NCBI GenBank assembly: GCA_963731265.1
Contig: CAVSUE010000001.1
Coordinates: 128,001 to 192,000, forward strand
From: an uncultured Verrucomicrobiae bacterium
GTDB taxonomy: Bacteria; Chlamydiota; Chlamydiia; Chlamydiales; Rhabdochlamydiaceae
Length of the DNA: 64,000 nucleotides
Direction: 5' to 3'
Shown one piece after another: positions 35,520 through 36,500 of the stretch. The position numbers and the translations under genes were made by a program. A model generated the notes under the pieces. The model had not been told where the DNA came from. It worked only from the letters and a program-made list of their open reading frames with translations, and ran no database searches. The number at the start of each line of letters is the position of its first letter. Position 1 is the first letter of the stretch.

Positions 35520-36500
35520 ATGTCTTTTATATCTGAAGCATCCTTGTTACGCCCAAGTTGGTTAGACATTCAGAAACCTAGGGAAAAAATCCAATTGCGA
35601 ATTTTCTCTGAGCCTTCTTCACCCGAGCTGATTGTGAAACAATTGGCTTCGATAGAAGGCCCCGTTGATGTTTATTTTTGGTATGAAGGCTCTCTATGCT
35701 TGCCACAATCTGGTGCAGTGTTTATGAAGGAACAGTTTTTTAATCCGCTTTATAAATTAAAGGGGGATGTCAAACTGTGTCTTTACTCACTTAGAGCTTG
35801 GGATTTCAAAAGAAACATCAATACTATTGCATCTTCAACACCACTTGGGGAGGTTATCAATCGTATTAATGCAGCAGCTATTGAATGCATCTATTCTTCT
35901 TCTTTTTTCCGATACTGTACGCAGGTTTCGGCAGAAAGCGATCTATATGCATTTATAAGAGATGAATTACCAAAAAAAGAATGGCTTTTTAAACTTTCAG
36001 CAACCCAGAAAAAAAGTGGCACTACAATAAGTGCTTTTTTTAATGAACGATCATCTCTGTTCGATTGCATTAAGGAATTGGATCTCTCTTCCGCCTATTC
36101 TCTCATGCAATATGTGGAAGGATATTATTTAATTCAAGAATCCGTAAAGAAAGGATTGCTGAATGGACAAAAGAGGATTGAAATTGCTTTTGTATTGCCG
36201 AATGATGAAAGCAAGTATTATGCAGATCTGCCGAAAGATATTGAAAAAATGCTCCAATTGGATTTTGGGAAAGATCTAATTGGTGTCGAAGTCAATATTT
36301 CATTTCAGTTTTTCCAATATGGAGACTCCATAACTTCCAGGCCTTATATCGATAAGCGACGTAAGGCTCTTAAAGTAGAATCAGGAGAAATTGGATCTTA
36401 TTTCGATTATCTCTCTTCACAATCATTTTCTCAAGAACAACCAAGAATGCCATTCTTTACCCCTCGAGATGTCATTCACAATCTAAATGGATGGTATTAA
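35520..36500 (+). CDS. Uncharacterised protein, probable TyrRS (class Ic) catalytic-domain paralogue lacking HIGH/KMSKS
   Basis: Ordered motifs VYFWYEGS, LYSLRAW, IYSSSF, YSLMQYVEGYYL, IEIAFVLPNDESK; the ORF is secure, the fold is inferred by eye. Confidence 0.55.
   Translation: MSFISEASLLRPSWLDIQKPREKIQLRIFSEPSSPELIVKQLASIEGPVDVYFWYEGSLCLPQSGAVFMKEQFFNPLYKLKGDVKLCLYSLRAWDFKRNINTIASSTPLGEVINRINAAAIECIYSSSFFRYCTQVSAESDLYAFIRDELPKKEWLFKLSATQKKSGTTISAFFNERSSLFDCIKELDLSSAYSLMQYVEGYYLIQESVKKGLLNGQKRIEIAFVLPNDESKYYADLPKDIEKMLQLDFGKDLIGVEVNISFQFFQYGDSITSRPYIDKRRKALKVESGEIGSYFDYLSSQSFSQEQPRMPFFTPRDVIHNLNGWY

Follow-up and report, generated by a model that had tools for sequence, protein, structure and literature searches.

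The DNA analysed here, called the window throughout, is a stretch of 64,000 nt (positions 128,001 to 192,000 of contig CAVSUE010000001.1, assembly GCA_963731265.1) from an uncultured chlamydial bacterium placed by GTDB in the Rhabdochlamydiaceae. Among its genes is one for a protein of 326 residues, here named X326 (Table 1), which may derive from the catalytic core of the tyrosyl- and tryptophanyl-tRNA synthetases (TyrRS and TrpRS). A Shine-Dalgarno-like sequence (AGGAAA) lies 7–12 nt 5' of the start codon, and the gene is the second of four closely packed genes on the forward strand, in the order racemase, X326, sodium:solute symporter family (SSF) transporter and M15 dipeptidase. X326 starts 12 nt after the end of the racemase gene, the first 14 nt of the symporter gene are shared with the end of X326, and 3 nt separate the symporter and dipeptidase genes.

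The racemase scores 40.7 bits against its Pfam model (cut-off 31). Its NCBIfam matches, CuyB-like (79.7 bits) and asp_race (54.1 bits), are both below the cut-offs of those models, and for this reason no substrate specificity is assigned. Two cysteines, C86 in IACNTLH and C186 in LGCTE, which we take to be the catalytic residues of this family, are retained in the window gene and unchanged in all 21 X-linked racemases that were aligned. The symporter, a likely importer, comes closest in NCBIfam to PanF and PutP, scoring far under the cut-off of each. The M15 protein matches the VanX and DdpX models of NCBIfam below cut-off and has the H-x6-D and EWWH motifs, presumably its metal-binding and catalytic residues.

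The cluster lies in a stretch of low G+C content (0.37–0.41 between about 28 and 40 kb, compared with 0.44–0.51 in the flanks). A TnpB/Cas12f-like ORF (open reading frame), which overlaps the 3' end of an SDR gene on the opposite strand, is found upstream of it, and an IS3 transposase gene is present further away. Together, the TnpB-like gene, the transposase and the low G+C content suggest a mobile or recently acquired island. A promoter and terminator scan of nt 34200–39000 gave counts at chance level and was not used.

Table 1. Features of the window and one fusion gene from a related locus (L023), with coordinates in the sequence named.
Feature	Sequence	Coordinates (nt)	Strand	Length (aa)	Remarks
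X326	window	35520–36500	+	326	ATG-started ORF
Racemase, pyridoxal phosphate (PLP)-independent Asp/Glu type	window	34842–35507	+	221	PF01177, E=3e-10
SSF transporter	window	36487–37854	+	455	PF00474, E=2.5e-25
M15 (VanX/DdpX-like) D-Ala-D-Ala-type zinc dipeptidase	window	37858–38496	+	212	PF01427, E=6.9e-15
TnpB/Cas12f-like protein	window	31879–33408	+	509	Cas12f1-like TNB domain, E=2.7e-12
SDR gene	window	33392–34315	-		
IS3 transposase	window	26298–27347	-		
Collagen-like Gly-X-Y repeat protein	window	2094–2933	+	280	
TIGR02452 family domain protein	window	44459–46192	-		99 bits (cut-off 50)
Ankyrin-repeat paralogue 1	window	46340–48076	+	578	
Ankyrin-repeat paralogue 2	window	48086–49822	+	578	
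Ankyrin-repeat paralogue 3	window	49977–51491	+	504	
TIGR02452 family domain protein	window	62881–63997	+		112 bits (cut-off 50)
Fusion of a HisRS-like and a histidine ammonia-lyase (HAL)-like domain	L023	2028–5105		1026	directly upstream of racemase and X genes

The X family and its gene neighbourhoods

X326 had been described, in a reading made from the letters alone (the sequence-only reading), as an orphan, and this does not hold. With a word-indexed search, 136 homologues were recovered (E<=1e-3), every one unnamed or 'hypothetical', those with named entries being chlamydial (e.g. PNK_1806 of Protochlamydia naegleriophila, 63% identity), and an exhaustive search of 50%-identity clusters gave 229 cluster representatives at the same threshold, 161 at 1e-10 and 49 at 1e-30. 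Across the species genomes scanned there were 36 loci with a member of this X family, the majority in metagenome-assembled genomes (MAGs) of Chlamydiota and a few in genomes labelled Coxiellaceae, Legionellaceae, Gammaproteobacteria, Verrucomicrobia or Ignavibacteriae. X326 itself matches no Pfam or NCBIfam domain, and a Pfam scan of 86 representatives gave only single-member noise; as no Pfam family is shared between any two of them at E<=1, the family is without a Pfam model. Full-text literature searches found no published description of the family, of HisRS paralogues fused to an X domain, or of the chlamydial operon.

Conservation was counted in an alignment of the 86 representatives, which are 22–60% identical to X326. 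Six residues (W54, W94, Y193, E200, E230 and Y234) are invariant; Q197 and Y276 are conserved in 85, G57, S160, F224 and R274 in 83 each, P275 in 82, N228 in 81, and S194, P227 and Y233 in 80 each. The motif strings quoted in the sequence-only reading are all in the 326-residue translation: VYFWYEGS (from residue 51), LPQSG (61), LCLYSLRAW (86), CIYSSSF (123), AYSLMQYVEGYYL (192) and IEIAFVLPNDESK (220). The expectation that the five motif blocks would be conserved is borne out for blocks 1, 2, 4 and 5, which hold W54, W94, Y193, Q197, E200, E230 and Y234, while block 3 is moderately conserved (S126 in 64/86, F130 in 71/86). One X gene, in a Parachlamydiaceae MAG (L009, nt 6001–8251), is split into pieces corresponding to residues 1–225 and 222–326 by a DDE transposase gene on the strand opposite to X (nt 6678–7919), i.e. 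this orthologue is disrupted by an insertion sequence.

A conserved neighbour is the racemase, which adjoins the X gene in 22 of the 36 loci, with two further loci cut at that edge. These 22 include a Coxiellaceae, a Legionellaceae and another gammaproteobacterial locus, in all three of which the gene order is reversed. An SSF symporter gene lies directly 3' of X in the window and in L001, L003, L010, L011, L013 and L020, and as a fragment at the contig end in L016; the M15 dipeptidase gene comes after the symporter gene in the window, L010 and L020. Nine distant loci (L024–L030, L032 and L036) have other partner genes 3' of X: a GNAT gene follows X in seven and a BioC/Tam-like methyltransferase gene in eight, and in seven a major facilitator superfamily (MFS) transporter gene is found on the other strand, that of L024 being of the metabolite:H+ symporter type. 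Carboxyl-methyltransferase-like genes also occur near X, as do genes for a HAL-like lyase (L005) and a hisC-like aminotransferase (L022), and polar-amino-acid ABC importer genes or an APC permease are present in L022, L033 and L034. The racemase gene 5' of X in L010 (nt 5272–5928) matches in two overlapping pieces with identities of 42% and 55%, which points either to a frameshift or to faulty assembly of this MAG.

A link to aminoacylation comes from gene fusions. In seven distinct proteins the X domain is fused to a full-length enzyme resembling histidyl-tRNA synthetase (HisRS), in both orders: X is N-terminal in three (P0175, P0225 and P0266) and C-terminal in four (P0263, P0267, P0268 and P0269). 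The fused HisRS-like parts cover positions 2–404 of the 406 of the hisS model (223–310 bits, cut-off 286.75) and carry the HGTP anticodon-binding domain; in two further proteins, P0232 and L034, only a remnant of that domain is left. A search with the family alignment for longer fused forms found none, a negative that counts as weak evidence; fusions were recovered in a regional search that had a fusion protein as its query. Three other proteins join X to a GNAT domain. Separate HisRS-like paralogues are neighbours of X in L022 (two copies), L023 and L034. The L023 protein listed in Table 1 scores 228.5 bits against hisS and 343 bits against hutH (cut-off 539), the latter for a histidine-ammonia-lyase-like, MIO-type domain, and we know of no description of such an architecture.

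Predicted fold and putative amino-acid pocket

Two structural models were obtained. Model 1, an AlphaFold2 prediction of X326 from 61 sequences (pLDDT 89.1, pTM 0.84), has a core of approximately residues 21–301, with both termini (1–20 and 302–326) predicted to be disordered, and the core is a beta-alpha-beta structure with a long helical insertion (residues 126–190). Model 2 is of a Rhabdochlamydiaceae homologue about 28% identical to X326 and was built from a different alignment (pLDDT 96.2, pTM 0.93). For both, Foldseek searches of the PDB gave the catalytic domains of TyrRS and TrpRS as the best known folds. The top match of model 1 was a plant TyrRS (7sc6_A, E=6.6e-4, probability 0.99), the sole one under E=1e-3 among the matches listed, about 35 of the 42 of which were TyrRS or engineered TyrRS variants (several of the latter presumably derivatives of the Methanocaldococcus jannaschii enzyme) and two TrpRS; TM-scores were 0.25–0.36 and root-mean-square deviations (rmsd) 6–9 Å. 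With model 2, TyrRS and TrpRS made up 35 of the 47 matches listed (E 0.015–0.1, probability 0.35–0.90, TM 0.26–0.38), the list also holding an isonitrile synthase (9dh4_A, TM 0.37) and a designed esterase (3u1v_D, TM 0.38). In a third search, of a viral library, giant-virus TyrRS had the highest probabilities (0.90 and 0.87), followed by other class I synthetases. Rows for SDR and P-loop folds had TM-scores of 0.12–0.23.

In model 1 the elements of X326 appear in the order seen in TyrRS and TrpRS: a strand with a Gly-rich turn, then a long insertion of helices, the pocket helix, a strand with a conserved polar turn, and finally a strand and loop. The conserved blocks are arranged like the class I motifs of E. 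coli TyrRS, with comparable spacings (136, 35 and 46 residues in X326). From the models, X326 likely has a class Ic-like fold. The earlier proposal of a TyrRS catalytic domain is partly supported by the top folds of two confident models, with weak matches, and has no counterpart in sequence or profile homology. Two fold candidates from the ESM Atlas were tried and dropped: ATP-grasp R2K (score 0.83, 77–80 of 256 features), with no Pfam ATP-grasp match in X326 or the 86 representatives and no ATP-grasp structure among the Foldseek matches listed, and ABBA prenyltransferase/DUF5838 (0.82), for which the score is in the range of shuffled proteins and the fold is absent among the Foldseek matches listed.

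Two stretches mark the putative pocket: Y193-x3-Q197-x2-E200, where a long helix begins, and N228-D229-E230, behind the strand that follows. Y193, Q197 and E200 have the same spacing (i, i+4, i+7) as Y175/Q179/D182 in E. coli TyrRS and Y151/Q155/D158 in the M. jannaschii enzyme, where D158 reads the side chain and Y151 and Q155 superpose on Y178 and E182, which are essential in the cyclodipeptide synthase (CDPS) AlbC (PMC3105412). As a bare pattern, Y...Q..[DE] turns up in 4 of the 56 ORFs of the window. Beyond chance is its placement, the motif being invariant and opening the helix before the fourth strand.

The two ATP-binding signatures of class I synthetases are missing, as had been noted from the sequence. 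At the HIGH position X326 reads LPQSGAVF, and HxGH is absent from X326 and present in one of the 86 representatives; a KMSKS-like pattern is absent from X326 and from all 86, and the family carries a conserved F-x-Y-G-x5-R-P-Y block at that position. Pfam and NCBIfam scans of X326 detected no C-terminal anticodon- or tRNA-binding domain, and the core of the fold stops at about residue 301. Because HIGH, KMSKS and a domain for tRNA binding at the C-terminus are all lacking and no homology to bacterial TyrRS is detectable, X326 is predicted to be unable to form an aminoacyl adenylate as class I enzymes do.

A possible aminoacyl-tRNA-dependent reaction and its alternatives

X326 may descend from the catalytic core (Rossmann plus CP1) of the class Ic synthetases, having lost both ATP-binding signatures and the anticodon-binding domain, as the CDPSs have, and kept an acidic amino-acid pocket. 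This pocket would hold the aminoacyl group of a pre-activated amino acid, most likely an aminoacyl-tRNA, and the enzyme would move the group to an acceptor without ATP; the dependence on tRNA, transfer in preference to hydrolysis, and the identity of the amino acid are what we infer. The amino acid might be histidine-like or otherwise polar, since relatives are fused to HisRS-like synthetases. In the window, X326 and the co-transcribed racemase would act on an amino acid imported by the SSF symporter, the likely product being an aminoacyl-D-amino-acid (dipeptide-type) compound that the M15 dipeptidase could turn over. An aminoacyl-tRNA-dependent reaction appears to be the best single explanation because the family is tied to the activation of a histidine-like amino acid by a class II synthetase and to amino-acid racemisation, capping and import, and probably has a synthetase-derived fold without ATP motifs. 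That X326 is specifically an ATP-independent enzyme of CDPS-like logic, acting on aminoacyl-tRNA by transfer, is suggested tentatively and with rather less than even confidence; the clusters of biosynthetic appearance in which HisRS paralogues are duplicated, and the precedent of the CDPSs, agree with transfer. The alternatives offered in the sequence-only reading, an aminoacyl-tRNA-using transferase or a D-aminoacyl-tRNA editing factor, have gained indirect support from the HisRS-like fusions and the conserved racemase neighbour.

CDPSs of the AlbC, Rv2275 and YvmC type are also small single-domain proteins (a core of about 230–300 aa) that have lost HIGH, KMSKS and the anticodon-binding domain, and their best structural neighbours are likewise the archaeal/eukaryotic-type TyrRS and TrpRS catalytic domains. 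The neighbours named for AlbC (2cyb, 1j1u and 1zh6; PMC3105412) rank 2 (2cyb_B), 6 (1j1u_A) and 42 in the list of model 1. In CDPSs a conserved Tyr of the pocket helix and the residue four further on correspond to Y151/Q155 of TyrRS (PMC3105412), as Y193 and Q197 of X326 would by their spacing. Both groups occur in intracellular bacteria, CDPSs being on record from Rickettsiella and Fluoribacter (PMC12945691). None of the 86 X-family members matches the CDPS sequence family, AlbC superposes on TyrRS with an rmsd of 3.5 Å over 160 C-alpha atoms (PMC3105412), a much closer likeness than that of X326, and the usual CDPS partners are cyclodipeptide oxidases and P450s, not a racemase, HisRS-like fusions, GNAT and importers. 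In addition, the nucleophile of AlbC, S37 in G35-x-S37 (PMC3105412), has no conserved counterpart: G57 is followed by variable positions 58 and 59 (the commonest residues being P in 18/86 and Y in 22/86), and the other conserved serines of the family, S160 and S194, lie elsewhere.

A number of results count against a synthetase-derived transferase. BLASTP of X326 against E. coli TyrRS gave E=1.5; hhalign of the 86-sequence family profile gave a probability of 0.4% against the same protein and 0.5% (0.8% at permissive settings) against an alignment of 13 bacterial TyrRS sequences, taken from E. coli K-12 and PLSDB records after L045 was dropped for in-frame stops; and HMMER searches of PDB sequences with two family profiles found nothing relevant, just designed binders (E 0.19 and 0.74). 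Homology between X326 and TyrRS at the sequence or profile level is therefore not above chance in any sequence test run. The fold match is weak throughout (TM 0.25–0.38, rmsd 6–9 Å, one E below 1e-3 and all those of model 2 at 0.015 or above), unrelated folds are mixed into the viral-library results, all of which have E>=4.8e-3, and no CDPS structure is among the matches listed in either PDB search (ranks up to 50). Nor is there a conserved Ser at the CDPS nucleophile position, two residues past G57. The pI of the family is near neutral (median 7.5) and gives no hint of a surface that binds tRNA; tRNA genes are absent next to X in the window cluster and in all 36 loci, and the 64-kb window holds no HisRS paralogue. 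It would take a special reason for one operon to encode both a synthase and a dipeptidase, and the X-linked transporters look like importers (SSF, MHS-type MFS, APC and polar-amino-acid ABC), which would be expected of salvage or detoxification no less than of synthesis.

With the same fold and pocket, X326 might hydrolyse in place of transferring. It would then be a trans-editing factor that strips the aminoacyl group from D-aminoacyl-tRNA, or from tRNA wrongly charged with an amino-acid analogue, and would guard translation as the racemase and the M15 dipeptidase produce or recover D-amino acids; in the HisRS fusions it would be a cis-editing domain. Editing domains are found fused to ThrRS, ProRS and AlaRS, and fusion at either end of a synthetase (three X-HisRS and four HisRS-X proteins) is their usual architecture. 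The recurrent partners (racemase in 22/36 loci, VanX-like, GNAT, HAL-like and hisC-like proteins) either produce or release D-amino acids or unusual ones, or could remove them, the X contexts carry importers and no obvious exporters, and the lack of a conserved Ser at the CDPS nucleophile position also speaks for hydrolysis. An importer together with a D,D-dipeptidase also resembles the ddp operon of E. coli, a salvage operon with an importer and DdpX, and overall editing agrees well with the importers, the D,D-dipeptidase, GNAT and the existence of fusions in either order. DTD, YbaK/ProX and AlaX would be analogues in function only: X326 is similarly small, free-standing as well as synthetase-fused, and linked to sources of D-amino acids, and it has an unrelated fold and matches none of these families. 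The absence of similarity to known deacylases (no consistent Pfam match in the 86 representatives) tells against hydrolysis, as does the finding that the neighbouring HisRS-like genes score under the hisS cut-off (222–250 against 286.75 bits, with only P0263 passing) and, in L022 and L023, stand beside methyltransferase and aminotransferase genes and look biosynthetic. The only known precedent of a class Ic fold without ATP motifs, the CDPS, is moreover a synthase (PMC3105412). An editing role is considered somewhat less likely than transfer.

Dependence on tRNA is given up altogether if X326 is an enzyme or binder of a free amino acid or small peptide, such as an ATP-independent hydrolase, esterase or transferase acting on the substrate or product of the racemase or on an imported dipeptide with a D-residue. 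The HisRS-like partners would in that case sense histidine or tRNA, much like HisZ, in which a HisRS-like domain is a regulator, or GCN2. Pairing with a racemase (22/36 loci) is indeed far commoner than with a HisRS-like gene (3/36), importers for small polar solutes are present in every context, the HisRS-like paralogues are matched by the hisZ models too (94–140 bits), the fusion of one to a HAL-like enzyme in L023 would suit a sensor, and the weak Foldseek list of model 2 contains an amino-acid-binding isonitrile synthase and a designed esterase. Yet the fused HisRS-like parts match hisS end to end, score higher on hisS than on hisZ and keep the anticodon-binding domain that HisZ lacks; the two opposite fusion orders argue for direct hand-over of a substrate, and no Pfam hydrolase or transferase signature was found in X326 or the 86 representatives. 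This appears rather unlikely. The likeness to TyrRS could also be spurious, produced in Foldseek by a generic three-layer alpha/beta architecture; X326 would then be an unrelated Rossmann-like enzyme, e.g. an ATP-grasp-like or other ligase that partners the racemase. TM-scores never exceed 0.38, nearly all E-values are above 1e-3, hhalign and BLASTP were negative, and the nearest named ESM Atlas clusters are ATP-grasp (R2K) and ABBA prenyltransferase. Such designs exist: in enterococci a D-aspartate ligase partners an aspartate racemase, and the VanC operon encodes a racemase, a ligase and a D,D-dipeptidase. The window cluster copies the VanC- and ddp-type layout, with a racemase, X326, an importer and a VanX-like M15 dipeptidase, but its middle enzyme is not an ATP-grasp D-Ala-D-X ligase, its racemase is of the PLP-independent Asp/Glu type and its host is chlamydial. 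The Atlas scores of 0.82–0.83 (77–159 of 256 features) are in a range that shuffled proteins reach a third of the time, and no ATP-grasp, prenyltransferase or glycosyltransferase structure is among the better Foldseek rows. TyrRS and TrpRS rows dominate for two independent models and in a second library, the strand and helix order and the placement of the conserved blocks follow the class I motif order of E. coli TyrRS, and the HisRS fusions point independently to aminoacylation. An artefact also seems rather unlikely.

The X family could be a third, unrecognised lineage of class Ic-derived enzymes beside TyrRS/TrpRS and the CDPSs, a possibility that is again given rather less than even odds. 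Its members would have no ATP site and would receive an activated amino acid from tRNA, in some bacteria by way of a dedicated HisRS paralogue fused to them. In chlamydiae, Legionellales and further intracellular bacteria they would team up with a racemase to produce or proofread aminoacyl compounds of the D type or derived from histidine. To our knowledge the CDPSs are the only family in which the core of a class I synthetase has become an enzyme that works on aminoacyl-tRNA without ATP; this would be a second, independent case, and would widen the routes from the translation machinery to small-molecule chemistry. The racemase partner and HisRS fusions would then give a handle on D-amino-acid and histidine metabolism, which is poorly understood in chlamydiae and other intracellular bacteria, and the natural HisRS-X fusions, in which putative donor-making and donor-using activities are held in one chain, would be a clean experimental system. 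A 2026 review of aminoacyl-tRNA-dependent enzymes covers GNAT-fold transferases, CDPSs, LanB-like PEARLs and class I/II aminoacyl-tRNA synthetase-like enzymes, and its introduction and CDPS section hold nothing like the X family (PMC12945691). Even if synthetase ancestry fails, a family of 229 representatives with no Pfam model and with partners conserved across phyla merits a name.

Other genes in the window

Elsewhere the window encodes a CT441-type Tsp protease and RodA; these, the ankyrin-repeat proteins and the names attached to the nearest relatives put the organism in the Chlamydiota, close to the Parachlamydiaceae. Four ORFs (350, 457, 207 and 126 aa) at nt 27379–30998, between the IS3 transposase and TnpB genes, have no NCBIfam match. 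The collagen-like protein resembles the Scl and Lcl adhesins in its repeats only, with scores far under cut-offs, and one of the two TIGR02452 proteins has an N-terminal extension of about 285 residues that is without a match. The three tandem ankyrin-repeat paralogues have their best NCBIfam matches, far under cut-offs, to the Ank effectors of the Legionella Dot/Icm system, and are candidate host-interaction proteins.

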